Of a DNA stretch of 64,000 nt, positions 2,469-54,000 are shown piece by piece; position 1 is the first letter of the stretch; every line of letters begins with the position of its first letter. A program made the position numbers and the translations under genes. The notes beneath the pieces are model-generated. The model was given only the letters and a program-made list of their open reading frames with translations, was not told where the DNA came from and searched no databases. The stretch covers positions 75,976 to 139,975 of the forward strand of contig JACOYB010000004.1 in assembly GCA_016182085.1 (NCBI GenBank), written 5' to 3'. This stretch comes from Candidatus Magasanikiibacteriota bacterium. Its GTDB lineage: Bacteria > Patescibacteriota > Patescibacteriia > Magasanikbacterales > GWA2-37-8.

Positions 2469-2582
2469 AATAACTAGTTTTCAGCAAACAACCTCTCGTC
2501 CGCCTCGGGCGGACTCGGGCGTTCAGATCTCATCCCGACGCGATTCGGGATTCCGGTGTGTTGCTGAAACTAGTTATTTTTT
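2469..2582. terminator. compound palindromic element / bidirectional terminator between convergent arginase-family gene and gatB
   Basis: Outer ~21-bp inverted repeat (aataactagttttcagcaaaca / tgttgctgaaactagttatt) encloses two GC hairpins (tccgcctcgggcgga and atcccgacgcgattcgggat). It fills the whole 120-bp convergent intergenic gap. Confidence 0.55.
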
Positions 2583-4135
2583 TATTTACTTATTTTTTTT
2601 CGCAGGAGTTTTTCGGTCACGGTTGGATCGGCCGATCCCTCGGTAGCTTTCATGACCATGCCCTTGAGGAATTGAAGAATAGGTTCCTTGCCATTTTTAA
2701 ACTGTTCCACTTGTTGCGGATAATTTTTTATGACTTCATCAATAACTTCCGAGAGTTTTCCTTCATCGCTAATTTGTCCGTAACCTTTTTCTTCCATTAC
2801 ATGGGTTGGGTCCAGATCCACGCCGGAATCAAGCATTTCATTTAGTATCTTTTGAGCGTTGGTAGAGTTTACGCGGTTGGTATAAATAAGCGCTACTAGT
2901 TCGGCAAAGTTTTCCGGTTTTAATCTAAGAATTTTAATATTTATGCTGCGTTCCGCCATCGCGCCCATAAGCTTGCTGGTAATCCAACCGCCGGCAAGTC
3001 TGGCGAGTTGCTGTTGTTTGTTTTGTAGGATTTCGTCCGTATCTGTTTTTGATTCGCTTAGGTTATGCAGCCAGTCTACCAGTTCGCTCATGACCTTTTC
3101 TGTATAGTCGGACCAGTGAAGATCGCTGGAAAGCAGTTCGGCATCTGCATAAGAAAATCCATATTCTTCACGCAGGCGAAGCCTTTTGGCTTGGGGTAAT
3201 TCTGGCAAAGATATATCTCCGGCGATTTTTACCGGGTGAAAAGGCGGAATATCCGGTTCGGGGAAATACCTGTAATCGGCGGCTGTTTCTTTGATTCTTT
3301 GCATCACGGTTTCGCCTTTGTTGTCATCCCAGCCCCTAGTTTGCTGTTTCCAGGCTTCTCCTTTTTCCAGCATGGCGGTTTGCCTGATTATTTCAAACTC
3401 AATCGCTTTTTCCACGGCTCGGAAAGAATTAATGTTTTTTACTTCTACTTTATGATTTAGGGTATAGCCGGCGACCGGTTTTATTACTCCTTTATCGTTT
3501 ATAAATTTATTTTCTTCCTGAAGAGAAATGTTGGCCTCACAGCGCATATTACCCTTTTCCATATCGGCATCGCTGATACCCAAATATCTAAAAATTGCTT
3601 GCAGTTCTTGGGAATACATTTTGGCTTCGGCCGAGCTGGTAACATCCGGTTCGGAAACTATTTCTACCAGCGGCACACCGGCCCGGTTAAAATTCACTAA
3701 AGTATTGCCCGAAGAGTCGTGAGATAATTTAGCCGTGTCTTCCTCCAAGTGTACTCTGGTAATACCGATATGGGCCTTGTCACGATAGTTTTTGCCCGGT
3801 AAGAATTCTAAATCTATATAGCCGTGTTCGCCAATAGGCTGGTCATACTGAGAAATTTGGTAGGCTTTGGGCAGGTCCGGATAAAAATAATGTTTGCGAT
3901 CAAATTTACTTTCGGTATTTATTTGGCAGTTTAATGCCTTGGCAATTTTGGCTGCCCATTCAATTGCCGTGTGGTTTGGCACAGGCAAGGTGCCGGGGTG
4001 GGCCAAGCAGATTTCACAGACATTGGTATTGGGAGCGGCGGAAAAAGGATCGTTTTTGCACGAACAAAACATTTTGCTTTTGGTTTTAAGCTCTACGTGA
4101 ATTTCCATGCCGATTATAGGGGTGTATTTGGGCAT
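2582..4135 (-). CDS. gatB: Asp/Glu-tRNA(Asn/Gln) amidotransferase subunit B
   Basis: 517 aa. N-terminus MPKYTPIIGMEIHVELKTKSKMFCSC with the C-terminal GatB/YqeY domain. Confidence 0.9.
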   Translation of the reverse strand: MPKYTPIIGMEIHVELKTKSKMFCSCKNDPFSAAPNTNVCEICLAHPGTLPVPNHTAIEWAAKIAKALNCQINTESKFDRKHYFYPDLPKAYQISQYDQPIGEHGYIDLEFLPGKNYRDKAHIGITRVHLEEDTAKLSHDSSGNTLVNFNRAGVPLVEIVSEPDVTSSAEAKMYSQELQAIFRYLGISDADMEKGNMRCEANISLQEENKFINDKGVIKPVAGYTLNHKVEVKNINSFRAVEKAIEFEIIRQTAMLEKGEAWKQQTRGWDDNKGETVMQRIKETAADYRYFPEPDIPPFHPVKIAGDISLPELPQAKRLRLREEYGFSYADAELLSSDLHWSDYTEKVMSELVDWLHNLSESKTDTDEILQNKQQQLARLAGGWITSKLMGAMAERSINIKILRLKPENFAELVALIYTNRVNSTNAQKILNEMLDSGVDLDPTHVMEEKGYGQISDEGKLSEVIDEVIKNYPQQVEQFKNGKEPILQFLKGMVMKATEGSADPTVTEKLLRKKISK

Positions 4136-4218
4136 AATTTAGTCTTATTTATGCGTTAAGATTATCATTTTATAGTTTTTTTGGCAATTTATTTTTTACT
4201 CTTTATCCCAATTCTATA

Positions 4219-4690
4219 TCACCCCATTTTGTCAGCAAAACGGGGTGATGCCCCAAAACTGCCTCGCGGATGTACTTATGCCTCGAACTGCCATCAGCTC
4301 TGTCTCGCTTTTGTCCTGAACTCAATTGGCCGTCTATAACGGCCAATCTCAAACAGCAGGACAAATTCCTCCCGTCAAGCGGGAGGAACCGCTCACCATC
4401 ACTGTGGCCAGTTCGGTCAAAGTCCATAGGCTCGGGTATCGAACCGTTGTCCAACGTTGTCCAGGCGAACATTGGAATTATGAGGATAGCAGACAGAGAC
4501 AAACCCGAACGATTCCCTGGCGGAATCTGCCCTGTGTTTGAGCCGAGGCGAGTTCAGGGCAGAAGTGAGTGGTGAGTCCTGTCTGGCTCCGAGTAATTCC
4601 ACCGTGAGCGATTTCTTTCCACCCCCTTTCTTTTAAAAGAAAGGGGGTAAGAGGGAGATGTGTTTTTGCTGACAAAATGGGGTGATAAAG
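4219..4690. ncRNA. candidate structured non-coding RNA or MITE-like element (identity unresolved)
   Basis: GC-rich island in an AT-rich neighbourhood. Closed by 25-bp inverted repeats (atcaccccattttgtcagcaaaa at 4219 / ttttgctgacaaaatggggtgat at 4665). Nested long-range complementarity (gcctcg/cgaggc, cctgaactc/gagttcagg), perfect hairpin ccccctttcttttaaaagaaaggggg. Only short mutually overlapping ORFs without RBS. Confidence 0.3.
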
Positions 4691-4749
4691 GATTATTTTT
4701 TAACTAAAATCCTCCATAAATATGGAGGATTTTAGAATATTTTTTTTGA

Positions 4750-5511
4750 TTACATTTGTTGAGAAGGTGGAGTGGAAGGCAAAGCAGATACCGGATTCTG
4801 TTTAGCGCTATAGTATAAAATAAGCATAGCGGCTGTAGAAAGAGGTGCCACCAAAACGGTTCCAAGGGAAGTAACCACGCTTGCCACTCCGCCTTTTAAA
4901 AATTCGGTAAGCGGTAGTAGATCAACTAAGGATGCGAGGACGTAAAAGAGGGCAAGATTGATGGCGCCAAATATCACATTAGGCGCCACGATTTTCCAAG
5001 CAATAGACCACCATCGTCCAAGTACGAGCGATTTACTGGTCTTTAGGGCAGCCATGCCTTTCTGGTTCTCAAAAATCATTACATATACATAAAAGCTATA
5101 CCATACGGTAAAGATTATGCCTGGAATGAGTAGTAATAAAAACCCGCCGATAATAATTAAGCCCGAAAGCAGAGAAGTATAGATGAAAGGCCAGATTAAC
5201 GGGCTGGACAAAGAAAAGTTTTCTCTCCAGTTTGTGGTTTGTCCGGACAAAAGACCGGATAGCGCCTTTGCCATGGCAATCGTTGTCCAAATGTTAAGTA
5301 CAATGGTAGCTACGCCCACAACTGTTATAAGCAGGTTTGTAGGTAAAGAGGATTTAGGCACAATGACTTCTAAGTATAGAGAAATAATGCCCAAAAGGGA
5401 TAGTGCGACTGTAGGAAGGAACAGAAGACCCAGGTATGGGACAAGGGCTCGCCAATTTTTGATATATAAATGGAAACTATTGCTAATAATTTCCCCTGCT
5501 GATTTGAGCAT
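4750..5511 (-). CDS. polytopic membrane protein, function unknown
   Basis: 253 aa with about six predicted TM helices. No recognisable catalytic motif. Confidence 0.55.
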   Translation of the reverse strand: MLKSAGEIISNSFHLYIKNWRALVPYLGLLFLPTVALSLLGIISLYLEVIVPKSSLPTNLLITVVGVATIVLNIWTTIAMAKALSGLLSGQTTNWRENFSLSSPLIWPFIYTSLLSGLIIIGGFLLLLIPGIIFTVWYSFYVYVMIFENQKGMAALKTSKSLVLGRWWSIAWKIVAPNVIFGAINLALFYVLASLVDLLPLTEFLKGGVASVVTSLGTVLVAPLSTAAMLILYYSAKQNPVSALPSTPPSQQM

Positions 5512-8985: not shown

Positions 8986-9570
8986 TTAATTTTGATATTT
9001 AGATAATAGGCTATCCAGATTTTTTTGCAGGTCTTCCATACTACCGTTATTATCCAAATTCTCAGCAGCATGGCTTATTACTTCGGGGATAGACATTTCG
9101 GTGGAACGTTTATGGTCTTCCATAAATTGTTCAAAAGTTTTGTTGGCATCATCCGGGTTTTCTCTTCTTTGTATTATTCTAGAGTATCTGGTGTGTGGGT
9201 CGGCAAAAATTTCTACCAAGACAAAATTTGGCAATTTGGAAAGATAAACAATATCGGCCATACGTCTTATACCTTCTACAACAATAATATTGTTAGAATC
9301 AGCGGCCGCATCTCCGGCAATAGTTTTGGCCATTATATCTTCGCCAAAAGTAGCGCGGATAGCTTCGGACATTTTGATTAAATTATCGCGGTTATGTTCT
9401 AGATGAATACGATCAAGCAAATCCCGCAAAATGGTAGAGAACCGATAAGTAGTGGCGCCATATTTTTGTTGGTAATAAGCAGCCACTGTACCTTTACCGC
9501 TGGCCATGAGGCCGGTAAAACCTAAAATTACTTTGCTATTGGTTTGCATAAGCTTCAACTTTATCTTCAA
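8986..9570 (-). CDS. P-loop nucleotide/nucleoside monophosphate kinase-like protein
   Basis: Walker A GFTGLMASGKGT near the N-terminus, ~190 aa. Resembles dNMP-kinase/CoaE-like small kinases. Exact start (M1 or M8) uncertain. Confidence 0.5.
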   Translation of the reverse strand: MKIKLKLMQTNSKVILGFTGLMASGKGTVAAYYQQKYGATTYRFSTILRDLLDRIHLEHNRDNLIKMSEAIRATFGEDIMAKTIAGDAAADSNNIIVVEGIRRMADIVYLSKLPNFVLVEIFADPHTRYSRIIQRRENPDDANKTFEQFMEDHKRSTEMSIPEVISHAAENLDNNGSMEDLQKNLDSLLSKYQN

Positions 9571-10045
9571 AATAATCTAATTCTATTCCAACTTGCCTAA
9601 ACATCTCTTCGCTTTCGGAACCGGCGTGGTATCTTTTTTCGCACACGACTCTTTTCACACTGGCGTTAATTATCATTTTGGCGCATACGGCACACGGAGT
9701 CATGCGGCAATAAACGGTAGCGCCATCAATCGGCACACCCAGCTTGGCAGCTTGTACGATAGCATTTTGTTCGGCATGAGCTGTGCGTACGCAATGTTGG
9801 CTTTGGTGTCCGTCTTCGTGAGTAACCGTTTTCATTTGGTGCCCAATTTCATCGCAGTGAGCCATGCCTTTGGGGGCGCCAGCGTAGCCGGTAACCAAAA
9901 TTTGTCTATCTTTGGCAATTACCGAACCAACTCGGCCTCGGTCGCAAGTAGCGCGTTTGGCTACCGCCCGACAGACTTCCATAAAGTATTCGTCCCAGGT
10001 AGGGCGAACGTAGGGCTGGTTAGAAGTTTCTTCTGACATACACAT
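9536..10045 (-). CDS. dCMP deaminase (cytidine/deoxycytidylate deaminase zinc-binding family)
   Basis: HAEQNAI...PCAVCAKMII zinc-binding motifs. 169 aa. Confidence 0.85.
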   Translation of the reverse strand: MCMSEETSNQPYVRPTWDEYFMEVCRAVAKRATCDRGRVGSVIAKDRQILVTGYAGAPKGMAHCDEIGHQMKTVTHEDGHQSQHCVRTAHAEQNAIVQAAKLGVPIDGATVYCRMTPCAVCAKMIINASVKRVVCEKRYHAGSESEEMFRQVGIELDYFEDKVEAYANQ

Positions 10046-12167: not shown

Positions 12168-12422
12168 TTGCTTAAAACGGAGCACGTACTCTTGGAAGAT
12201 CTTGAAATTGAAACCTGGGTTCCTGATATCCTTAGCGAGGTACAGTGTCCCAATCCAAATTGCGGCGGGCGGGCGGAAGAAGTGGCCGAGAATATTATCT
12301 GGTGCGCCAAGTGCCAGAAGCACTACCCGCCCCCACCCTCAATTGCGGTTGGTTTGAAAGAGCTGATGGCGATCACTCAAGCTCAGGACTGCAGCCGAAT
12401 TCCGCCGCAACTGGCTGAATGA
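12168..12422 (+). CDS. small zinc-ribbon protein (CxxC...CxxC), hypothetical
   Basis: 84 aa with CPNPNC and CAKC pairs downstream of a consensus promoter. Sits in a GC-richer accessory block. Confidence 0.45.
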   Translation: MLKTEHVLLEDLEIETWVPDILSEVQCPNPNCGGRAEEVAENIIWCAKCQKHYPPPPSIAVGLKELMAITQAQDCSRIPPQLAE

Positions 12423-12513
12423 AGCCCGGGCAATCCGCGAAAGAAGTTTTTTCGCCGTCGTCCTAGCTTTATAAAAATAACTTTTGTTTTTATAAAACTG
12501 GCGGCGAATTTCT

Positions 12514-12566
12514 TCTCAAAAAATAATTTTTACAAAACGCCGTTTTTATAAACGGTGTTTTGTTTT
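12514..12566 (+). repeat. terminator-like hairpin module, copy 1 (direct repeat with 13055-13100)
   Basis: aataatttttacaaaacgccgtttttataaacggtgttttgtttt repeated almost exactly ~540 bp downstream. Each copy is followed by a TTGAC(A/T)-17-(TACGAT/TTTAAT) promoter. Confidence 0.6.
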
Positions 12567-12626
12567 TTAAGTTTGACAAAACAGTGAACTCTGATACGAT
12601 AAAATTAAGTTGTAGGGGGTTGTTCC

Positions 12627-12938
12627 ATGAGAGTAGTAATTTCTCGGGAGAAGCTTCTGCTCGTGCGTACCGTGGAGTGTGGTCGTTACGTCATACTGCG
12701 CCAGGTGACCAGGCTAAACGGTCGGGTTCTCTCAAGGTTGAGTTTTCATCTTGGCGAGAAGTACCAAACATCTTTTTCAAAGGTGTTTACCTTGGAGCAG
12801 GCACAGGCGCTGTTCAAATCGGCAAAACTGCAATCCACACTCAACATGAGTGATAAAGAAGTAGAAGGCTTGTATCAACAACTGGGGGAGTTGTTCCCAG
12901 ATCCAGCGTCGTATTTGACGCAAGCTGGATCTAACTAG
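12627..12938 (+). CDS. hypothetical protein
   Basis: 103-aa ORF downstream of the first repeat/promoter module. No motif recognised. Confidence 0.35.
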   Translation: MRVVISREKLLLVRTVECGRYVILRQVTRLNGRVLSRLSFHLGEKYQTSFSKVFTLEQAQALFKSAKLQSTLNMSDKEVEGLYQQLGELFPDPASYLTQAGSN

Positions 12939-13054
12939 CAGCGTATGCACAGCGCCAGCTCATAGTGGTGCGATCAAGAGCTCTCGTTATCGCATCACCT
13001 TTCTGCAAATGAAAAAGTTGTTTATAGAAAGGTGATGACGAATTCTTGATAAGA

Positions 13055-13100
13055 ATAATTTTACAAAACGCCGTTTTTATAAACGGTGTTTTGTTTTATT
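13055..13100 (+). repeat. terminator-like hairpin module, copy 2
   Basis: Near-identical copy of 12514-12566. Followed by TTGACT-17-TTTAAT and the 13155 ORF. Confidence 0.6.
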
Positions 13101-13154
13101 GACTTGTTTTAATAAATAGAATTTAATACCCATATCACCAACTGGGGGATTGAC

Positions 13155-13589: not shown

Positions 13590-13830
13590 CGTCTTGATGT
13601 AGTGAATGGGGTTGTAATAAAACAACCACCTGACACTGCGTTACTACCCATAGTAAATGGATAATAACGTGGAGGATACAGGTGGTTGTTTTTTATTTAA
13701 ATTATTTTTGATTTATTTTGATACGGCGGGGAAAGCGGCGTCTGAAAAGACACCGCTTTCTGACGGCTGAATTTCGGCATCGTTCGCATTGCGAACTGTG
13801 CCAGTGGGTGTTTCAGCCTGTAGGGGAAGC

Positions 13831-14121
13831 TCAGTCCAACGGCTCGCCGCTCCTTGAACGGCGCCGCCGATCGTCGATCTGCCACGACTGCAACTGCGGG
13901 ATCTGTTCCCTGGCAGGAGCGGGCTGTGCCGGACCGGAAGAGGTCTGGCTGGTCTGCGCCGGCGGCTGGTCGGTGGAATTGTTGTCTTGGGTAGTCGAAG
14001 GATCTTGGTCGATCGAATCCCGTAGCAGCTGTTCCTCGGAATACTTGTGGTTCGGAAAATGAGTCACGGTTTCCCCCATGGTCGGTTCAAATTGGTTTGC
14101 CAGAACCGTTCTAGCAAACAC
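13831..14121 (-). CDS. hypothetical low-complexity (T/Q/P-rich) protein in GC-rich patch
   Basis: 96 aa. The plus-strand ORF 13718-14062 is a likely shadow. An upstream minus-strand TTGCAA-16-TATAGT promoter is present. Start codon uncertain (GTG or the internal ATG at MGETV). Confidence 0.3.
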   Translation of the reverse strand: MFARTVLANQFEPTMGETVTHFPNHKYSEEQLLRDSIDQDPSTTQDNNSTDQPPAQTSQTSSGPAQPAPAREQIPQLQSWQIDDRRRRSRSGEPLD

Positions 14122-14163
14122 ATTAATTTACACTATAATATTTTTATTTAATTTGCAAGTGTT

Positions 14164-14192
14164 AAAAAACACCGTTTTCGGCGGTGTTTTTT
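14164..14192. terminator. bidirectional rho-independent terminator hairpin
   Basis: aaaaaacaccgttttcggcggtgtttttt, a perfect stem flanked by A and T runs. Confidence 0.6.
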
Positions 14193-14210
14193 AATTCTAT
14201 AAAATATATC

Positions 14211-14336
14211 TTATTTGCGTTTCTTTTTCGCAGCCTTTTTTTCAAGCATTAATCTTTTTGCCGCCAATCTCTTTTTGGTTTTAGGAGAATGTCTTGATTT
14301 AGTTCTTTTTTTTAGTCCGGTAGGTCTTTTTGCCAT
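14211..14336 (-). CDS. small very basic protein (41 aa), possibly ribosome-associated
   Basis: MAKRPTGLKKRTKSRHSPKTKKRLAAKRLMLEKKAAKKKRK. Not in the ORF track (under 60 aa). Lies in an otherwise empty 250-bp gap. Confidence 0.35.
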   Translation of the reverse strand: MAKRPTGLKKRTKSRHSPKTKKRLAAKRLMLEKKAAKKKRK

Positions 14337-14439
14337 ATAAAATATTTATTTAATAATACAATTATTATACATTATTTTTTAATTTAAGCAAAGCGGTCGC
14401 GGCAGTTTATGATAATATGCAAAATTTTGCAACTGTTTT

Positions 14440-16229: not shown

Positions 16230-17369
16230 TTATTTGGAGACAACCAAGGCGCGCCGTAATTTTTTGCGGGCGCGAGAAAGGATAAGTTTTACCGCATTTT
16301 CACTTTTTCCAACCGCCAGCGCGATGTCTTTTGTCAATTTATCCTGCTGATATTTTAAAATTAAAATCTTTTGTTTAATACCCGACATTGTATGAATCGC
16401 GTTCCATAATTTTTCAATATCCCATATTTTTGCTTCATCAATCGGTGTGGCCGGAATATTTTCCGCCAAATCCAGATCTTGGACTTGGGGAGCATGGGCC
16501 GCGGAGCGATAGTGGCTTGCCAAAACATTGTGAGCAATGCGCAGAAGGTATGTCAGATACGAGGCGTTGGATACGGTAAAGCGGGGCAAATATTTGAATG
16601 CTTGCAGAAAAGTTTCCTGGGCTAAATCTTCAACAAAGGCAGGATTAGCCCGTTTGAAAAAGTATTGTTTTATATGCACATAATACTTTTGATACAATTT
16701 ATCAAAACGCAAGCTATTTAACTGGGCTGAATGTATTAGCTCACTATCTTCCAACCTGTCGCGGTATTGGGTTTGCGTTGGTTCCACCAGAATTTTTTGT
16801 AAGAACTGTTCTAAAAGAGAATCTGTTTTTTGAGTTTGCGAGCTTGGAAAATCATCAGTTCCCAGCGGTGAAGATAGAGAAAATAAATGTAAAAAAAAGC
16901 CAATCGCGCTGTCGTCGGTTTTTTGTTTTTCAAATTGACTGATAAATTCGTGGTCAAAATTGGCAGATTTGGAAAGATCCAAGGCGTTACTTATATCAAT
17001 TTCAATAAAGAATTTAATTTCACCGGCCTTGTTTAGGATAGGAGCAATATGCAACAGATCCGAATAAATCGTGCCATCCTTTTTTTTATTTTTAACCCAG
17101 CCGATGAAGGGCTGCTTTTGTCGGCCGATGGTTTGCCACATGTTCTGGTAAAATTCTTTCGGCATGTTGCCGCCCCAAAGCTGCCCCGGTTTTTTGCCGA
17201 TTACTTCGCCGGGTGAAAAACCGGTTTTTTCTTGGATTTTTTTATTAACATACAAAACCGACGCATCCGGAGCGGTAATTATAATTGTTCCCGCAGAGGT
17301 ATCGTCAAACTTTTGTTTGAGCGCGGGGGCAGTTATTTTTTGTTTAGGTTTTGATTTTTTTGGAGGCAT
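16230..17369 (-). CDS. PAS domain-sigma70 family fusion protein
   Basis: N-terminal PAS-like region (IIITAPDASVLYVNKKIQEKTGFSPGEVIGKKPGQLW...KDGTIYSDLLHIAPI). C-terminal sigma region 2 (LAQETFLQAFKYLPRF) and region 4 (LTKDIALAVGKSENAVKLILSRARKKLR). Start taken at the ATG for MPPKKSK. The ORF track extends it to a GTG. Confidence 0.65.
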   Translation of the reverse strand: MPPKKSKPKQKITAPALKQKFDDTSAGTIIITAPDASVLYVNKKIQEKTGFSPGEVIGKKPGQLWGGNMPKEFYQNMWQTIGRQKQPFIGWVKNKKKDGTIYSDLLHIAPILNKAGEIKFFIEIDISNALDLSKSANFDHEFISQFEKQKTDDSAIGFFLHLFSLSSPLGTDDFPSSQTQKTDSLLEQFLQKILVEPTQTQYRDRLEDSELIHSAQLNSLRFDKLYQKYYVHIKQYFFKRANPAFVEDLAQETFLQAFKYLPRFTVSNASYLTYLLRIAHNVLASHYRSAAHAPQVQDLDLAENIPATPIDEAKIWDIEKLWNAIHTMSGIKQKILILKYQQDKLTKDIALAVGKSENAVKLILSRARKKLRRALVVSK

Positions 17370-17666
17370 ATTTTTATACCCTATCACGATTGTATAGAGG
17401 GGGCAACTTGGGTTAGACACCTTTTAGGCAGCATTTGCATTTATTTAGGTAGAAGCGTTATATATTCGCTTCAGAGAGGAGGTGAGCATGCAGAAACATA
17501 GTTACATGAAGCGGTAAAAAGGACGATAGCTCCTTGACAATTGGCTAAAAGAAGTAGTTGGGATTTACTAGTTCTATCTATCTCGGTATAATTAGAGTAA
17601 CCTATTGCATAAATATGAATCGCTGCTTTAGATCCGCGCGATAAAAATTTTAATATAGTTAATTGT

Positions 17667-22333: not shown

Positions 22334-24919
22334 TTAAAAAGACTTCATTCCGTTCAAATCTAAATATACCCCAAACGGTGTTGCCTTCCAATAAGACATA
22401 TTTATACCATAAGTTAGTAGTATTTGAGTTACAGTATTAGAGCTTATGCCCTTAATTGGGAGGAAGTAGCTAGCGGGTATCTTTACTTTGTGAGTCATTG
22501 CATTATTATTTTCATTCTTATATTCTTCTTTATAGTCTGCCTCTATATTTTTAAATATACTTTCCAAGTTGATCCCTTTAAGACGATCAACATATTCCTT
22601 GGTTCGGATATTTGCCTCCACTGGATTAGTAATAGTTTGCACAGACGTAAGAATATCTCTATATAAATCTATAAAATCTTTTAAGTATTCTTTTTCCTTA
22701 ATTTGATGCCAGAATCTTGTATCTGGATCAGTAAACATAATTAAATTATACTCATCCAAAGCTTTTGCTAAAGTTTCCCACAAATTATCCTGTTTTTCTT
22801 TAGGCTTCTTAAGCTCTGATAATTTATATTCTTTCCAAAAATGTTTTATATCTGTATATACAAAAGAGCCAGTAATCTGTGCTAGGTAAAGTGCCATTTC
22901 AAGAGTGCCGCTCATTTGATAAACATGCATTTGACCCCCTTTTTCACCGATACCAATTGGTTGTAAGGATGCTAGTGGGTTGTCTAGTTTTTTCTTTTGT
23001 ATATATTTCAAGGCATCCTCAATCTCTTCTTCAGAAGCATTGGGTGATTTTTCTTTAAGTTTGTATTTTAAAATATCTGGTGGTAAGTTAAAGATCGAAC
23101 TTTTCATATCATCTCGCATCAATTTTTGTGCAAGATCTGTATCATTTTTATCTATACTACGATATTTCATTCTCGCTTCAGCCATTTTATAAGTACGTTT
23201 TTTTAAATCTAAATTAAAATCGCAGGGATCTGGGATCATTTCGACAATGCCAGAATCAATAAGAGGCATTAAGCCCAGTATTAAATTAACATTTTTAATC
23301 GTGTTCTCCATGTATTGATGAGGGTTTTCATAAGGGCTATATTTTTCGTTCATGGTCCTGGGATTTAAAAATGGCGAATACATAATTATCTTATCGACAT
23401 ACAGAGAATAACCCATTATTGTTAGTGGGGTTACTCTGGGGTCAAGTGAACCATGGTAAAGGGCTTTTAATTCATCTTTATTTGGCTTTGATAGCAATGC
23501 TGTTAGCTCGGTATCAGGATTCCAGAGATGCCCTATGACACGGTATAATTCCCGAATTTTATCATCAGTCAACTCTTTGCGAAAGTCATCCCAATTTATG
23601 CCTTTATCAAAACCAAATATTTTGTAGATCGCATTATTTAGAATCTCGTTTCTCTCTTTAATTGAGTATTTTCGTACTGGGTCATTCTCATTTTCTCTGC
23701 TTGTATGCCTACGACCAAACGCATCCTGATACCAAGCGAGGCCGCCATCTTTGCCGCCAACATAAATTTCACCTCCAAACTGGTATAATCCATCCTTTGG
23801 TGGTAGTAGTATTTTATATAAAGACCCCCACTCATTTTGAGAGTATGTTTTTTCTGGGTATAGCCATTCTAATTTCCCAGCAGCAATGTACTTTCGAGCA
23901 CGGTTTTTTATAATATAGTTAAACGCACGCACTTCTTCGGCTTTTAATTTCCTTTCTCGTATAACAGTATCCCACCTAGTTATAGTTTGAGAAAAGAATC
24001 GCGGGTTAGTTCTGCTGGAAACTGGATCTACTTCGTTTGGAGAGGTCGCATATTCAAGGTTTGTTAAAACAAGACAGTGGTTTAAATCTAATGGAAATAT
24101 TGTTTGAGATGCCTTCCACGCTGTTGAGGGATCGTTGGGGTATTTGCATGCCTCTGACTCAGGAGGGCAGGCGGGATTATATATTGTCACAGGATGGTCA
24201 GAGATAATAAATTTAATATCGGATTCTTCGGCAGAAACTATCTCCATCACTCCCTCTATCCACATAGTACAATGCATGGTTCTTAAAAATTGCATTTCTA
24301 GTAGCAGTTCATCTTTTGTAAGCTGAAAATAGTTAGAACGAATCCAATCAAGCCCCTTAATAGTCCGTAGCTTTTGGGCATCAATATATACAAATATATC
24401 TTGAAAATATTTATGTAAAATATTAGGATCATTTGCTACTAATCCATCTATGGCAGCAGAAATATTGTTATCCATCTTTCCAAATAAAAGAGTTTCTATA
24501 TCCTCATTTCTCATGCCAAAGAAATTTGTCGTATATAAATTTTTTTTATGAAAATAACTTCCAGGTCCCTTATTATATTTCTCTGTAAGTTTTACTCGTC
24601 TTCCATTCGGGAGATCCTTATAAGGCTTTAAATCAATACAGTGCAGCGTTTTTTGTCCAGGTAGAAGGAATCTTTTTTGGTATTTAATCGGAACATAATG
24701 ATTATTTTGTCTTTTTGGCTTTGATGCGTATAACATAAAGTCTCCGTTTTGATTTTTAGATGTATCGTTATAATTTAACCTCTGGATTGAATTACTCAAT
24801 ACAGAATACTCTTGAGGAGTAGAAGCTTCTCGAGTTTTATTAATGCAACATTTCTTATATTTTTTACCACTCCTACACGGACATGGCTTGTTTAAGTATT
24901 TTCCTTTCCCCATAAACAA
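22334..24919 (-). CDS. large SEC-C-motif plus DUF4238-like domain protein with ~430-aa uncharacterised C-terminal half
   Basis: N-terminal KPCPCRSGKKYKKCC (SEC-C metal-binding motif), then NHYVPIKYQKRF...IISDHPV characteristic of DUF4238. Very AT-rich. Immediately downstream of tRNA-Asn on the same strand. Confidence 0.7.
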   Translation of the reverse strand: MFMGKGKYLNKPCPCRSGKKYKKCCINKTREASTPQEYSVLSNSIQRLNYNDTSKNQNGDFMLYASKPKRQNNHYVPIKYQKRFLLPGQKTLHCIDLKPYKDLPNGRRVKLTEKYNKGPGSYFHKKNLYTTNFFGMRNEDIETLLFGKMDNNISAAIDGLVANDPNILHKYFQDIFVYIDAQKLRTIKGLDWIRSNYFQLTKDELLLEMQFLRTMHCTMWIEGVMEIVSAEESDIKFIISDHPVTIYNPACPPESEACKYPNDPSTAWKASQTIFPLDLNHCLVLTNLEYATSPNEVDPVSSRTNPRFFSQTITRWDTVIRERKLKAEEVRAFNYIIKNRARKYIAAGKLEWLYPEKTYSQNEWGSLYKILLPPKDGLYQFGGEIYVGGKDGGLAWYQDAFGRRHTSRENENDPVRKYSIKERNEILNNAIYKIFGFDKGINWDDFRKELTDDKIRELYRVIGHLWNPDTELTALLSKPNKDELKALYHGSLDPRVTPLTIMGYSLYVDKIIMYSPFLNPRTMNEKYSPYENPHQYMENTIKNVNLILGLMPLIDSGIVEMIPDPCDFNLDLKKRTYKMAEARMKYRSIDKNDTDLAQKLMRDDMKSSIFNLPPDILKYKLKEKSPNASEEEIEDALKYIQKKKLDNPLASLQPIGIGEKGGQMHVYQMSGTLEMALYLAQITGSFVYTDIKHFWKEYKLSELKKPKEKQDNLWETLAKALDEYNLIMFTDPDTRFWHQIKEKEYLKDFIDLYRDILTSVQTITNPVEANIRTKEYVDRLKGINLESIFKNIEADYKEEYKNENNNAMTHKVKIPASYFLPIKGISSNTVTQILLTYGINMSYWKATPFGVYLDLNGMKSF

Positions 24920-24983
24920 AATAAACGAGTATTACCTCGTTTGAATCAAGACCCAAACGGGTCGCTCTCACGTATTTAATTTG

Positions 24984-25055
24984 CTCCCAGGCTTGGACTC
25001 GAACCAAGGAAATCCACGTTAACAGCGTGGCGTTGTACCGCTCAACTACCTGGGA
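24984..25055 (-). tRNA. tRNA-Asn (anticodon GUU)
   Basis: Minus-strand cloverleaf. Acceptor UCCCAGG/CCUGGGA, D-arm GUUG..CAAC, anticodon stem CCACG/CGUGG with loop CUGUUAA, T-arm CUUGG-UUCGAGU-CCAAG, discriminator G. CCA not encoded. Confidence 0.85.
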
Positions 25056-32687: not shown

Positions 32688-33242
32688 ATATAGTATGTAG
32701 CCACGCTCTTAACATTTAATTAGAACATTAGGAGCGTGGCAGACCAACCTTGAGTTATGGGCTAGATGCCGCGCTGACCTCGTCGCCTGACTGCATGCTT
32801 TGGCGGCAGATCTGCCGCATTCGCCGCCCTGGTCGGCTTGTTATGCGGAGGCAGGCAACTTTCAGCCAAACGCGGTGTGAAGTCAATGCCAAGCCAGCCG
32901 AAGATCGGACAGTAATAGTGAGAGAGCGCAATACCCATGGTATCCCCCTATTTTTTGATGTTGCTATCCTGGATAGTAGCGTACGAGTAACCCCAAAGTC
33001 AATTGTGGGTAACTAAGGTTGTACATTGTTGTACATACAAAAGGGTTTATGTTATATTAAATTTATCAAAGACTTACTTACTATGTATGTCAAAACTACT
33101 TAAGCAATCAATGCCGCCGCCCGGGCGCTCTGCGCAAAGTAGGGAAGCTATACAAACGCGACCCAATCCTTTAGGCAGTCTGGATCAAAAAAGGCAAGAA
33201 AGCGTGTTGCCGCAAGCAGTAATCAAAAATTTAGTAGGTAAA

Positions 33243-33273
33243 TAAAAATCCCTGATTTATTTCGGGGATTTTT
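33243..33273. terminator. terminator-like hairpin
   Basis: aaaaatccctgatttatttcggggattttta. Confidence 0.45.
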
Positions 33274-33333
33274 ATTTGTAGCTTAGAGCGTTCATTGACA
33301 ATCAACCAAATACTCACAGACAGGAAGTACCAC

Positions 33334-48094: not shown

Positions 48095-51000
48095 ATGAAA
48101 AGGGAAAAATTTTTTAGTTTGCATTTCCTCCTTATCAAAAAAAGACTAAAGAGATTTTTTTTGTTGAATTTTCTTTCGCAAGAGAATTCATGTCTGAGTG
48201 AGCCACAGCGAGCGAAGGCGATTCTTTATCGCACCCGTCACATAGTTAATAAAAAACAATTTCGCGCCGCGACGGCTGTGGTTTTACTTATAGTTATTTT
48301 GGTAAATGTATTTTTACCTGAACCCGGGCAAATTGCCCAAGCCGCAACCTATACGTTTGTTCAAACCAGCTGGAGCGGGGGAGCAAGCGCCACCGTTCCG
48401 GTACACCCTACCAACCAAACCAGCTGGAATAAATTTTCCACTAGCACTAGTGCCTTCACAACCGGCACTACAACCGTAACTATTGCCAGTACCACATACA
48501 GTTCTACCGACGATGGAACTTTTTCATCTACCGGCAGCGCGACCGGAGGCGGTTTTAATAATGGCACGACTTCATCCGCAGCTGTTTCGGGCAGCGGCGC
48601 TTCAGCTGTAATTAAATTAACAGGGAGCTCAAGTGCGATAAATCGAGTTACCGTTACTTCCTCAAATAATGGTGCGAGCGCTAATTTTCATGGCGCTTCT
48701 CAAGTCGTTGGCGCTTCCGGATCAGATTATTTATATTTTGTTGAAGCCGCCAATGAAGGCAGGGCATTGCGCCGTTATTCTATTTCCGGAAATTCATGGA
48801 CAGATTTGGCGTCTTATACATATGCCTACTTTGGCGCTCAGTTATTATGGAATGGAAGCGATGATTATATGTATTTAGCTGAAGGCCAAAGTACTGCCTT
48901 TGTTCGTTATTCCATTTCCGGCAATTCTTGGTCATCTATGACTGCTATTCCAGCAGCACTGCCTACCGGCATTACCCAAACGGCCGCTTTGCGCTATGGC
49001 TCAGAAGATTATATCTATCTTTTTAGAGGCGCGGGGCAAACAGCATTTTATCGTTATTCAATTAGTGGAAATAGTTGGGGCACCATGACTGCATTGCCAG
49101 TCGCAGCCGATGTCGGTATCCAAGCTGTCAGAGATGCAGATGGCGATTATATTTATGTGATTACCGGAAATAGCACAGCTTTTTATCGTTATTCTATATC
49201 CGGAAATTCCTGGTCTCATATGGCTTCTAGTTCTGTAAGTCTCACCGGTAACAACGCCAGTGTTTTGCATGATGATGGCAGTGATTATATTTATCTTTTA
49301 ACTAATAATAGTTTCCTTAGATACTCCATTTCCGGAAATTCATGGTCAACTATGGCAGATGCTTCTTCAGTAAATCCTGATTTTGGTTCAACTTTAATCC
49401 ACCCTGCAGGAGGAGATGTTATATATGCGACAGGTGAGTGGGATTGTTGTGGCGCGGTAAGGGTGTGGGGGTACTCTATTTCTGGCAATAGTTGGACAGG
49501 TTACCATATAACTGCGGGTCATTCCGGTGGTTATGGCGCGCCAAATAAAACCGCATACTTAAGATCGGGCGATGAATCATTTTATTTTTTTACTGCCAAT
49601 CAGGATAATGAACTGTTTAAATACACCATGACCGAAACCGTTTATAACACTACGGGTACTTTTACTTCTGCGGCCATGGATTTGGGCGTAGCCGAAATGA
49701 AAAATTTGTCTTGGACCAGCACAACTCCGTCCGGAGTGGGTAATGATGCGATTAAATTTCAACTCGCAGCCAATAATGACAACAGCACCTGGAGCTATGT
49801 TGGCCCAGATGGAACAACTGCTACTTACTTTATAAATAATGGCTCTACTTCATTCCCATCATCTTTTCTTAATAAAAGGTATTGGCGTTATAAAGCGTAT
49901 TTAGGCACATCTAGTACCAGCGCCACGCCATCGCTGGATAATGTTACATTTTCTTATTCTTCTTACGCAACCTCCAGTTATCTTACTTCTTCTATGTACG
50001 ATGCGGGAGATCCAACTAATGTGCTCGCCAGTGTTGCTTGGAATCGGGTGGAGCCGACCAGTACGACAATTAAATTCCAGCTGCGTACCGGTTCTAGCAC
50101 TTCCAGTCTTAACACAGCTGACTTCGTTGGCCCAAGCGGTGTCAGCACGACTTACTTTACTACCAATACCGGAGAAAATACTTCTTCCACCATGCGTGAC
50201 GGATCTAACGATCGCTATTTTCAATATAAAGTTTATTTAGAAACCACAAATCGCGCCTTTACTCCTACGCTCATCGGCGTTACAACCACCTATGTAGTTA
50301 ATGCCAGTCCGGAAATACAAAATGCTTCTTCCAGTCAAATGGCCAGCGGTACGGTATCTATTACTTATCAAGTACGTGACTCAGATACAGATACTGGCAC
50401 AATAAATCCTGGGTATGTGAGCTCTACCTTTGAATATTTAGATGCGGCTGGCGCGTATCAGGTTATTCCAACTAGCCAGCTTTCTTCGGGCGCCAATACC
50501 GTGGCTGTAGACGATGTAAATTGGACTACAAGCAGTGTTACTTGGACTCCGCCGGCAGGTTTAAGTATTGCGGCCAGTAGAATTCGCGTAACATTAAATG
50601 ATAATGAGGCAGCAAATAATACTACGAGTACGATTTCAAATACGTTTCAATTAGATACCGTCACGCCAGCCTCAGGCGCGATTGTGGTGGACGGTTCGCA
50701 AACGTCGGCTTTGGTTACACTTACTGCCGTAGATAGTTCAACTCTGTATATGAAAGTGTCGCTAAATAGCACGCTTTCCGATGTTTCCAGCTGGTCGGCA
50801 TTTTCGGCTACGACCACAATTACCTTAACTTCAAATCCGGCCACCGTATATGTGCAATTTAAAGATGGGTTTAATAACACGTCCAGTATTTTTAGCGCCA
50901 CCACTCCGGAAACACCGAGCAGCACCATAGTTCAAGATATTTCTAATCTGGTAAACGGTATAACCGACTATCGTCTTTTCGTAGCTTGGAAAGTAATAAC

Positions 51001-54000
51001 TACTCCTAGCCCAGGGTTTGCTAATTACATAGTGTATAGATCGCCTGATCAATCTGTATGGACGCCGGTTGCCACCAATACTACCATCACCAACAATTAT
51101 ATTGCGGATAGTTCTGTAGTTTCTAATACGCTTTATTATTATAAAGTGAAATCAACGGATTCTTCAGGCAATGTTTCTATATTTTCATCTATAGTAAACG
51201 GCCGCGCTAACGGTGATCAAGATGCGGGTGAAGGCGGTGGTGGCGCCGGTCCGCCTATAATTACCAGCGTGGCAACCTCTTCGCCAACACCTTCTTCAAT
51301 TACCATTACTTGGAATACGGATGTGCTATCCAATTCCATTGTTGGATTCTCCACCACGGCAGGTAATTTTACCGATAATTCAGTGACGGTCGGTACGATG
51401 GTAGATAGTTCTTCCGGATCCATAGGTCCTCATACCGTAGTTTTGGGAGGACTCACGCCAAATACCACTTATTATTTTAATGTAAAATCCGTTACGGCAG
51501 CTAGTGCTTCCACCACCGAAAATAATGGCGGCAACGGATATATATTTAGAACGCCCAATGGTTCAACCATCACCGGTGTTTCAGCCTCGGAAGTTTATAA
51601 TACCTCTGCGAGAATCGTTTGGAATACTTCGGAAAATGCCGATAGCACCGTCTATTATTCCACTTCCACCAATTTATCAAACGCAATTTCTACCAGCTCA
51701 TCCGCGCTTGGCACATCGCATGATATAACGCTCACCGGACTGACCGGCGGCACGCGATATTATTTTTATGTTCAGTCTGTAAACGCGTCCCAGGTAACTT
51801 CTACAGATAAAAATTTAGTGAGCGGTGTTTATGAATATTATAATTTAGCCACCACGCTTGATACGACGGCGCCGACCATTTCTTCCATTGCCACCACAAC
51901 CAGCAATAATTCTTCAAATGTTACGTGGGTTACAAATGAAGTTGCTAACTCTCAAATAATATACGGTACAACTACCAATTACGGATCCACTACCACCTTG
52001 GATTCCACCTATACCACTCAACATCTTGTGACGGTCGCTGGCCTCGCTTCATCTACGCTGTATCACTTCAAAATTTTATCAAGAGATAAAAATGATAATT
52101 TAACCTCTTCCACCGACCAGGTAATAACCACATCCGCGGCTCCAGATGCGACGGCGCCGACAATTACCAGCGTCACTACTTCCAGCGTGACGCTTACTGG
52201 AGTTACGATTACCTGGTCAACAAACGAAAATGCCAGTTCTATTGTGGAGTATGGTCTGACTACATCTTCATATAACTATATTGCTGGTTCTAATACCACA
52301 TCGGTTACTTCACACTCTGTGTCTTTAACGGGATTAAGCGGCAATACTACATATTATTTCCGAGTCAGATCCACGGACTCATCTGGAAATGCTGGGCTCG
52401 ATGATAATAACGGCAATGGCTGGAGGTTTGTAACCGTGGCCGATACGACCGCTCCGACGATTTCTAATGTTACAATTTTAGTTAATAATACTTCTTCAAT
52501 TATTACTTGGACTACCAATGAAGCCGCCACTTCGGAAATTAACTATGATACAACTGCCGGAGTCTATGGCGCTACGGTTTCAAGTTCCACCCTTAATACC
52601 GGACATTCAATTACGCTTACCGGATTAACGGCAAATACCACCTATTATTTCCGTATCAGATCTGCAGATGCTTCCAGTAATACTAGTACGGATAATAACG
52701 GCGGCACGGGTTATAGCTTTACGACGCTGGCGGCGCCAGTTACGGTTATTGGCGGCGGCGGAAGCGGGGCGGCCGTGGATAGGGATCCGCCGTCTATTGC
52801 AAATCTTAGCATTACTGATATTACGCCAATTTCAGCAAGTGTATCTTGGAGCACAAATGAAGAGGGGAATTCTTTAATACGTTATGGTTCAACAGTCCAG
52901 TATGGAACCTTGGTTGGAAATGATGAACAATTATTATCATCTCAACATAATGTAAAACTGTTTAATTTGAAACCCGGACAAACGTATCATTTGAAAGCAG
53001 TTACCTATGATGCGGCCGGCAATCGTTCCGAGTCGCAAGACCAGATATTTACCACTCTAAATGCTGATGGTACGCAAGCAACTTCAACTGCCACTACAAC
53101 TACTGCTACAAGCACCCAAGATAGCGAGTTGCCTCCAGAAACACAATTTATATCAGAATCTTTGCAAAAAGCCTCAAGCCGATCTCTGCAGCAATTTTTG
53201 AAAGATATAGCGTCCAATCCGCTGCTTAAAGATATTCCGGAAGATAAATTTATTCAAGCATTGCTTGAAATGGCCAGTAAAGTTATAGAGGCGCCGACCA
53301 TTGTCGGTATTAAGCCAACCGTGGAGGTAAGGGGCACTACGGCAATTATTACCTGGTCTACGGATAAAAAATCGACTTCCGAAGTCAACTTTGCCAAAGA
53401 TAGTAATTATAAGCCTGCTGATCGCAGTCCGTACACCAATGCTGCGGTGAACCCCGATGAATTTGGGCTTGCTCATAGAGTAGAATTAACCGGTCTTGAT
53501 GCGGGTATTCTGTATCACTTTAAAGTGATATCCCGCGGTTTAATTGGCCCAGAAGCCTCTAGCGCTGATTTTACGTTCCGAACCTCGGGCGAGTTGCCGG
53601 CGATTTCCGATATACGAGTTACCAGACCTACGAATACTCAATCCATGGTAGTGGTGGGCTGGAGAACTAATGTTCCGACAGCCGGTACCGTAGAGTATAA
53701 GAATGCCAGATCCGGCCAATCCTTAACTCAAGGAGACGCAAGTTTGCTCATCAACCACGAGGTTACTCTGAAGTCGCTTGAAGGTGGAATAAATTATACA
53801 TTGGTTATAAAAGCTAAGGATGAATTTAACAACGAAGTTTCCAGTTTGCCGATAACATTCTCTACTTCGCTTGATAAGGCTCAACCAACCATTTCCAAAC
53901 TCTCTTCAGATTCCACATTATATCCTGGCAGAGATTCCAAAGTGCAGACAATTATTTCTTGGGAAACCGATGAACCGGCCACCTCGCAAGTATTCTATCA

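Follow-up and report, generated by a model that had tools for sequence, protein, structure and literature searches.

What is the GC-rich, non-coding block that separates gatB from a membrane-protein gene in the chromosome of a patescibacterium? We examined it in a stretch of 64,000 nucleotides (contig JACOYB010000004.1 of assembly GCA_016182085.1; hereafter the window, 64 kb), in which the region is bounded by the start of gatB (2582–4135) and the stop of a DUF7847-like membrane-protein gene (4750–5511), both on the − strand, and in which the genomic setting, a thyA-folA-tmk-membrane-gatB cluster, corresponds to housekeeping chromosome. The original prediction, made from the letters of the window, had proposed either a large structured RNA or a miniature inverted-repeat transposable element (MITE). 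With moderate confidence, we interpret positions 4199–4692 as a non-autonomous, MITE-like foldback transposon whose arms would act as folded single strands, probably as RNA. The element and its immediate surroundings comprise the following features:

4199–4692: inserted element, 494 bp, a non-coding foldback of two inverted arms, its ends taken from the duplication and the terminal repeat CTCTTTATC...GATAAAGGA
4189–4198: left target-site duplication, 10 bp, TTATTTTTTA, adjoining the −35 box of the gatB promoter
4693–4702: right target-site duplication, 10 bp, TTATTTTTTA
4210–4240: left terminal inverted repeat, 31 nt, 94% complementary to 4664–4694
4664–4694: right terminal inverted repeat, matching the left-end hairpin in its loop and 3′ arm
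4159–4187 (− strand): putative gatB promoter, context outside the element, with the −35 box TTGCCA at 4182–4187, a 17-nt spacer and the −10 box TAATCT at 4159–4164
4704–4735 (− strand): ancestral terminator hairpin of the membrane-protein gene 4750–5511, context outside the element, identified by a terminator scan and from orthologues

The block stood out by its composition, with a GC content of 0.50–0.54 over 4201–4600 compared with 0.35–0.38 in the neighbouring spacers and 0.42 in the whole window, and by its folding, with a minimum free energy of −222.5 kcal/mol for the whole block and z-scores of −10.9 (+ strand) and −10.6 (− strand) relative to shuffled sequence. The open reading frames of the window copy are short and mutually overlapping; across copies, the conserved nucleotide motifs are spread over all three frames, and the open reading frame starting from a conserved ATG spans 22–101 aa with sequences unrelated between copies. 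Protein coding was rejected because no reading frame is kept across copies. The terminal inverted repeat contains a perfect core of 23 nt (4218–4240/4664–4686), and its 21-mer occurs in just these two places in the 64 kb, with 0 expected by chance. The left end forms a 14-bp hairpin by itself (4218–4231/4236–4249), and a second perfect hairpin, also of 14 bp, lies near the 3′ side at 4621–4648. The higher GC content, the lack of a plausible coding frame, the inverted-repeat ends and both hairpins had been described in the original prediction, and all of them were borne out.

The decamer TTATTTTTTA is AT-rich and identical immediately outside both ends of the element; it occurs only 4 times on the + strand in 64 kb, and a 10-nt repeat flanked a random 494-bp segment in only 79 of 200,000 trials (~4e-4). 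Because of this flanking duplication, the element proper was delimited as 4199–4692, and the insertion point lies one base from the gatB −35 box. In copy L091a, the ends carry a 9-bp direct repeat with one mismatch (8/9). The family termini read CTSTCTTTAT...ATCACCCCATTTTGTCAGC, with the alternative termini TTTCCACCTTTTGKAACC; the right terminal repeat is kept in L091a, L083 and L082 and partly in L094, and is absent or degenerate in L092 and L085. Regarding the flanks, TTGCMA-N17-TAATCT is conserved upstream of gatB in both filled and empty relatives (L097, L101, L104, L106, L107 and L108), and its resemblance to the consensus suggests that it is the gatB promoter. The hairpin at 4704–4735 was considered as the element's own + strand terminator and rejected: an orthologous hairpin is found at the equal position in the remnant-bearing L101 and in the empty-site L104, and since relatives without the element have it, it belongs to the membrane-protein gene as its ancestral terminator.

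The element belongs to a dispersed family. A scan of metagenome contigs with the end motif as an exact pattern returned 13 loci, five of which (L084, L087, L089, L090 and L093) were chance matches inside genes, while the other eight, located on 4 contigs, bear homologous elements with 74–89% identity to the window copy within alignable stretches. In all, approximately 12 homologous copies were found at unrelated intergenic sites on related Candidatus Magasanikbacteria contigs, including at least three on one 389-kb contig and at least four on one 197-kb contig. The similarity between loci ends at the element boundary, and all copies are intergenic, situated between convergent, divergent or tandem genes and in every orientation. 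The GatB and TypA proteins of the carrier contigs are those of Candidatus Magasanikbacteria (Patescibacteria), and the TypA encoded beside one copy matches that of Candidatus Magasanikbacteria RIFOXYD1_FULL_40_23 at 100% identity. Exact-sequence look-ups of the window's membrane protein and of the protein P0124 gave no match. No copy was found by blastn in phage and plasmid collections, and two pattern scans of viral contigs gave only chance matches within coding sequence. Around 80 further Patescibacteria and Bacillota yielded no family member when their gatB regions were searched with nhmmer, nor did the 39 of these loci to which the covariance model described below was applied. Full-text literature searches returned no description of such an element in Patescibacteria. 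The family is previously undescribed and multicopy in a Candidatus Magasanikbacteria subclade. The window holds three further stretches of 600–850 nt without an open reading frame of at least 120 aa (12311–13154, 13590–14439 and 32688–33294); none of them matched the element profile or any Rfam family at the gathering threshold.

The element is mobile now or was until recently, as seen from three loci at which some relatives have the element and others an empty site. At the gatB site, the gap between the flanking genes measures 614 nt in the window and 113–119 nt in L104 and L106, two of the closer relatives obtained via GatB homologues; L107 and L108 share the empty configuration, and the GatB proteins of these four relatives are 84–88% identical. 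The empty sites contain only the membrane-gene terminator hairpin, a spacer of 6–25 nt and the conserved promoter, and in nine farther relatives with equal gene order (GatB 64–74%) the distance from the membrane gene to gatB is approximately 0–200 nt. A 91% GatB relative (L097/L098) bears a full element of a different subtype and in the opposite orientation to gatB. L101 (GatB 87%) retains a remnant of about 75 nt at the same site, composed of a terminal-type hairpin and one end repeat; its sequence (L101:9834–10000), the hairpin CCTTACCTTTTTGCCAGCAAAAAGTAAGG followed by the alternative end repeat GTTACAAAAGGTGGA, suggests an older insertion whose core was lost later. At the second locus, an amino-acid-permease gene and a convergent gene are separated by 524 nt in L091/L113 and by 7 nt in L111/L112. 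The third, upstream of typA, is filled in L092/L113 and empty in L111, and one relative is without both copies within 21 kb. Insertion polymorphism, multiple dispersed copies, terminal repeats and the 10-bp duplication, along with a length below the ~600 bp of MITEs and the lack of coding capacity, together support the mobile-element alternative of the original prediction.

As at gatB, the element at the typA site lies between a terminator and a −35 box. At both sites it is situated 0–25 nt upstream of a conserved sigma-70-like −35 box (window 4159–4187; L092:3490–3530; L111:9855–9890), the typA promoter sequence being TTGACA-N17-TATATT and that of gatB TTGCCA-N17-TAATCT. An element adjacent to a promoter may alter promoter activity, or its position may mark the sole spacer tolerating insertion.

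Most of the 494 bp is taken up by two arms, whose positions and helices in the window copy are as follows:

4217–4445 (− strand): left arm, a structured module read from the centre outward and ending in the hairpin 4217–4250
4270–4297 with 4402–4427, 4310–4318 with 4357–4365, 4325–4333 with 4339–4347, 4366–4375 with 4379–4388: helices of the left arm
4455–4651 (+ strand): right arm, the second copy of the module, also read outward
4473–4480 with 4594–4601, 4490–4510 with 4565–4585, 4513–4516 with 4522–4525, 4526–4540 with 4549–4563: helices of the right arm
4622–4631 with 4637–4646: terminal hairpin of the right arm

A covariance model was built on the right halves only (alignment A4; 195 positions and 55 pairs, 30 of which showed compensatory changes in RNAalifold). 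The model matched, over its full length, the reverse complement of the left halves of the same elements at 45–89 bits; in the window, the match to the right-arm model over 4217–4445 on the − strand was likewise full-length and scored 58.6 bits (E ~4e-13), with 44 Watson-Crick pairs, 7 G-U pairs and 1 A-C mismatch at the model's paired positions. Since a model of right arms recognizes the reverse complements of left arms, the element consists of two inverted copies of one module of approximately 200–230 nt, and both copies read 5′ to 3′ from the centre outward. The module is composed of a closing helix, an interrupted long helix, two hairpins in which the internal loop UGUUUGAG/GAGUU is conserved, a conserved linker of sequence CCGYGAGSG, and a terminal hairpin. 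In both arm types, the closing helix keeps a tandem G-A/A-G mismatch in a YGAR context, while the pair flanking this mismatch flips between C-G and G-C. The local helices of the left arm reappear with other sequences in the remaining subtypes.

The two arms of one element are 44–55% identical, and in most copies the unpaired columns are more conserved between arms than the paired ones. When 19 arms (17 of them complete) were placed on the model, 94.9% of the cells were paired, compared with 35–46% in slid controls; 42 of the 55 pairs change on both sides, and none of 500 shuffles reached the observed covariation score or paired percentage. One 9-bp helix is 100% paired, with three or four pair types at most of its positions. 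Among the seven full-length copies, RNAalifold predicted 87 pairs, 36 of which changed on both sides, with 94.6% of the cells paired against 35–50% when the partners were slid.

The arms also show a strand preference. In the outward orientation, 79 cells are G-U and 11 are A-C. In alignment-free folding with RNA parameters, all 17 complete arms were more stable outward than as their complement, by 11.6 kcal/mol on average; with DNA parameters, the mean gap was 4.4 kcal/mol and the outward strand was favoured in 16 of the 17. In the window, the left arm folds at −104.8 kcal/mol on the − strand compared with −88.7 kcal/mol on the + strand, and the right arm at −81.0 kcal/mol compared with −76.4 kcal/mol for its complement. 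Were the preference due to a mutational strand bias acting across the genome, its sign would differ between the two arms; the symmetry seen instead argues for selection on each arm as a folded single strand. Together, an arm identity of about 50%, a common fold and the outward strand preference indicate that selection acts on each arm as a folded single strand, the outward-reading one.

Between copies, conserved blocks alternate with variable domains, so that each copy is a mosaic. The conserved blocks are the terminal hairpin, which exists in two flavours, CCCCAAAACTGCCTCGCGGATG, CCATATGCTCGG, TGTCCAGGCGAACATTGGAA, TTCCACCGYGAGCGATTCTT and the second hairpin. The variable domains fall into types I, II, III and IV on the left (5′) side and types a and b on the right (3′) side, which occur in many combinations, and they differ by compensatory swaps of whole helices, such as ATTGGCCG/CGGCCAAT to ACACCTG/CAGGTGT or CAGACAG/CTGTCTG to AATTTAG/CTAAATT. 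Several subtypes are present together in each carrier genome, and decayed remnants and truncated copies also occur. L086 and L088 each have two left-type arms, which indicates that the arms behave as interchangeable modules. In long-form copies, a further inverted copy of the 3′ linker-plus-hairpin module lies beyond the left hairpin, in some cases together with an end repeat; this outer module extends the inverted repeats to approximately 85 nt, 41 nt of which are perfect in L092. The long-form and variant copies are:

L092:2949–3035
L083:2148–2199
L086:8656–8706
L088:8696–8745
L082:~790–855

The element breaks metagenome assemblies and coincides with synteny changes, which matters for binning and for the inference of rearrangements. 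Several contigs end inside an element (L001 and L115–L118). L099 (8898–10000) and L097 (9385–10000) encode identical GatB proteins and have wholly different genes beyond the element, with the breakpoint inside it; the same holds for L113 and L114 around 9290–10000, which encode identical TypA proteins. These context changes may reflect either real recombination between copies or chimeric assembly. In L100:1–586, the gatB-side flank is present on both sides of a reversed element, which identifies this contig as a foldback assembly artefact; a real inversion was rejected on this ground. L110:286–3571 is a palindromic assembly artefact with two inverted gatB copies around the terminator hairpin.

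In the explanation we favour, the element inserted into the short stretch that separates the membrane-protein gene's terminator from the gatB −35 box, and an AT-rich target of 10 bp was duplicated. A transposase supplied from another place in the genome, acting in trans with staggered cuts, would recognize the terminal inverted repeats of approximately 30 bp and move the element. The arms would act in a role serving the element, more likely than not as RNA or, with clearly lower probability, as folded single-stranded DNA. We consider that their function probably benefits the element and not a host gene, for example as a structured cofactor or recognition partner of the mobility protein or through its control at the RNA level. 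Owing to the inverted arrangement of the arms, any transcript that enters, from whichever side, has one sense arm at its 3′ side, and either 3′ end of an excised form bears one sense arm. Copies also swap modules among themselves, and they coincide with the contig breaks and changes of genomic context described above.

Several observations weigh against this explanation. The autonomous partner is hypothetical: the 64-kb window contains no transposase, reverse transcriptase or TnpB/IscB-like gene, and neither the window nor the fetched loci contain a larger element with the same termini. The target-site duplication is clean in the window copy only, the ends of other copies being ambiguous, and no convincing or conserved promoter for outward transcription was found. 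Since the arms in alignment A5 were fitted to the model, and since there are only a few, mutually related copies, the covariation statistics overstate the number of independent events, and many of the compensatory changes are block swaps among a few domain types. Finally, some of the apparent rearrangements at the element may be assembly chimeras.

The alternative that survives best accepts the same foldback element and assigns its arms another chemistry, namely that they are recognition structures of folded single-stranded DNA, exposed on 3′ tails or the lagging-strand template while the element is transposed or replicated. Such structures have well-known analogues in integron attC sites, the ends of IS200/IS605 elements, and the terminal hairpins of parvoviruses or Streptomyces. 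The geometry of the element is compatible with this possibility, as the favoured strand of each arm has its 3′ end at the element end and would be exposed as a 3′ tail once the element is excised in linear form; DNA, too, accommodates stable tandem sheared G-A pairs in a YGAR context, the sense strand was the more stable one with DNA parameters in 16 of the 17 arms, and an element acting as DNA accords with the failure to find a promoter. On the other hand, the conserved G-U-rich helices (UUUG/YGAG, with two wobbles in four pairs) would be weak as G-T, and the sense–antisense gap drops from 11.6 to 4.4 kcal/mol when DNA parameters are used. Known recognition elements of this kind are simple hairpins and not multi-helix folds of about 200 nt, and the 10-bp target duplication points to a double-strand, DDE-type mechanism. 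We regard a DNA role as rather unlikely.

A more specific proposal, and a slightly more doubtful one, is that each arm is a structured outward-reading RNA of about 200 nt that would guide, or act as a scaffold for, a nuclease or recombinase whose gene lies elsewhere, by analogy with omega or bridge RNAs. If this were true, a sense copy would face each flank, and the family would represent a new class of RNA-bearing non-autonomous transposons in the Candidate Phyla Radiation.

The copies could also be paralogous host-beneficial genes for non-coding RNAs with a scaffold or regulatory role, spread and reshuffled by recombination and not transposable. The strong structural conservation, the better retention of unpaired than of paired positions between the arms of most copies, the coexistence of several subtypes in each carrier genome and the failure to find a transposase would all fit such genes. 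Host genes would not be expected to have terminal inverted repeats and a 10-bp duplication, to be present or absent at three loci among close relatives (one of them without both copies in 21 kb), or to lie in random orientation and position relative to their neighbours. Their absence from the gatB regions of the approximately 80 other Patescibacteria and Bacillota (39 loci with the covariance model), together with decayed remnants and truncated copies, also speaks against them, and we consider this explanation improbable.

The structured-RNA alternative of the original prediction described one + strand RNA of approximately 470 nt with a terminal closing stem and nested long-range helices, similar to a ribozyme or to OLE or HEARO RNAs. 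In its favour, the + strand of the whole element forms a predicted rod (z = −10.9) with a centroid structure near the minimum-free-energy structure, and the pair GCCTCGCGG:CCGTGAGCG occurs as G-U, G-C and A-U across copies. The nested complementarities themselves are present, at positions 2–10 nt away from those originally assigned; for example, 4304–4323 can pair with 4550–4569 (20 nt, 85%), and 4298–4305 with 4491–4498. As helices, however, the three inner long-range pairings do not hold, given that they are lost when domain types are mixed between copies; the complementarity arises because the two halves are diverged inverted copies of one module. Moreover, folding is as good on the − strand (z = −10.6), which for the left arm is the more stable one by 16 kcal/mol, and the closing stem formed by the terminal repeats is absent or replaced in L092, L085 and L082. 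A B:Z1 helix closing the whole RNA was weakly supported and was set aside; the 3′ linker position covaries better, and indeed perfectly, with a nearer partner (A-U in 5 copies, G-C in 3). What stands of the structured-RNA proposal is therefore the conserved, covarying and strand-specific fold of each arm of about 200 nt, and a single large RNA with a closing stem is very improbable.

Rfam 15 was searched on both strands, at the gathering threshold and at E ≤ 10, and neither the window copy nor the others matched any family, including RNase P, transfer-messenger RNA (tmRNA), 6S, HEARO, OLE, introns and self-cleaving ribozymes; nine loci with other family members likewise gave no match to OLE, GOLLD, ROOL, raiA or group I and II introns. 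At the level of Rfam, the HEARO- or OLE-like identity suggested originally is excluded. The original prediction had attempted to fit RNase P and tmRNA, without success, and both were rejected here as well. The RNase-P-like strings it reported do exist, but the AAAGUCC partner (P4, CR-I/CR-V) is absent, no type A or B match was obtained, and AAAGUCC and ACAGAGACAAACC are not kept across copies; for tmRNA, both ARAGORN and Rfam were negative. HEARO and IscB-TnpB omega RNAs were rejected on account of the lack of an RF02033 match, the housekeeping neighbours, and the presence of terminal repeats and a duplication. A REP or REPIN identity was rejected because no terminal hairpin stands alone on contigs of the family and the repeat unit is approximately 200 nt.

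An inverton, in which a site-specific recombinase would flip the segment between its inverted repeats and so regulate gatB or its neighbours, is the least probable explanation of all: it could account for the inverted-repeat bounds directly upstream of the gatB and typA −35 boxes, the opposite orientation in the 91% relative and the reversed core of L100, the sole contig with the core reversed, yet L100 has the same flank on both sides and the element-less L110 shows a like artefact, the window and L097 copies are different subtypes and not one flipped sequence, the window contains no invertase, some copies are located between convergent genes, a setting that would give a promoter switch no purpose, and a target duplication is present.

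Other genes in the window deserve mention. An 861-aa protein with DUF4238 and SEC-C motifs is encoded within 22334–25055, adjoining the window's only tRNA gene (tRNA-Asn, 24983–25055, − strand), and may be an accessory or defence-type gene located beside a tRNA. At 16230–17420 (− strand), a PAS domain is fused to sigma-70 regions 2 and 4, an unusual architecture for a sigma factor. At 48095–54256 (+ strand), a probable large surface protein of 2053 aa combines five repeats of the purple-acid-phosphatase N-terminal domain with FN3 and Kelch domains, and L085 bears a paralogue-like gene of 1254 aa.

Returning to the foldback transposon with folded arms, its interest lies mainly in the arms. Approximately 55 pairs per arm, kept by compensatory change at about 50% identity and on opposite strands, are the signature of a functional folded nucleic acid, which a transposon end undergoing decay would not leave. 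Should the arms act as RNA, they would constitute a new and sizeable class of structured RNA travelling as a mobile dimer; if they act as DNA, they would form an unusually elaborate single-strand recognition structure. There is a minority chance that they represent a new class of functional mobile RNA. To our knowledge, the genomes of Patescibacteria are tiny and streamlined, few mobile elements have been described from them, and neither a repeat family nor a large non-coding RNA family comparable to this one has been reported.

When compared to known systems, the closest resemblance is to bacterial MITEs such as the Neisseria Correia elements, enterobacterial ERIC, pneumococcal BOX and RUP, and cyanobacterial Nezha, which are likewise small, non-coding, multicopy and intergenic, with terminal repeats and target duplications, and which share mosaic copies, transcripts predicted to form long hairpins, and filled and empty sites between relatives. 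At approximately 500 bp, the present element is larger than most of them. It also differs in being a dimer of multi-helix modules of about 200 nt, with arms 44–55% identical and a strand-specific, compensated fold, in having no known parent insertion sequence, and in having a patescibacterium as host. Eukaryotic FB elements and the IR-DR members of Tc1/mariner (inverted repeats of about 230 bp) also consist of two long inverted arms with a short centre. Their arms are kept similar in sequence and act as double-stranded protein-binding sites, whereas here the sequence has diverged and the single-strand fold is kept; the present element is, in addition, bacterial and flanked by a 10-bp target duplication.

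Likewise, IS200/IS605 elements with HEARO or omega RNAs, as well as PATEs lacking open reading frames, are multicopy mobile elements with a large structured RNA near one end, directed towards the flank. In contrast, our element has no HEARO match on either strand and no IscB or TnpB gene nearby, and it bears the terminal inverted repeats and target duplication that IS200/IS605 elements lack, together with two symmetric modules and not one. REP, BIME and REPIN sequences share the intergenic palindromic units, alternating orientations and mosaic arrays, and some of the present copies have extra terminal hairpins; REP units are palindromes of 20–40 nt. Here, no solitary terminal hairpins were found outside full elements, and no RAYT gene was seen. 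The large RNAs OLE, GOLLD, ROOL and raiA are similar in being non-coding islands, rich in GC amid AT-rich intergenic sequence, highly structured and covarying, and the present block was noticed by reasoning like that which revealed them. The present element is distinguished from these by its multiple copies, terminal repeats, target duplication, site polymorphism, inverted-dimer organization and lack of an Rfam match. What sets it apart from the described bacterial MITEs and foldback transposons is that most of its length consists of diverged arms that keep their fold and not their sequence.

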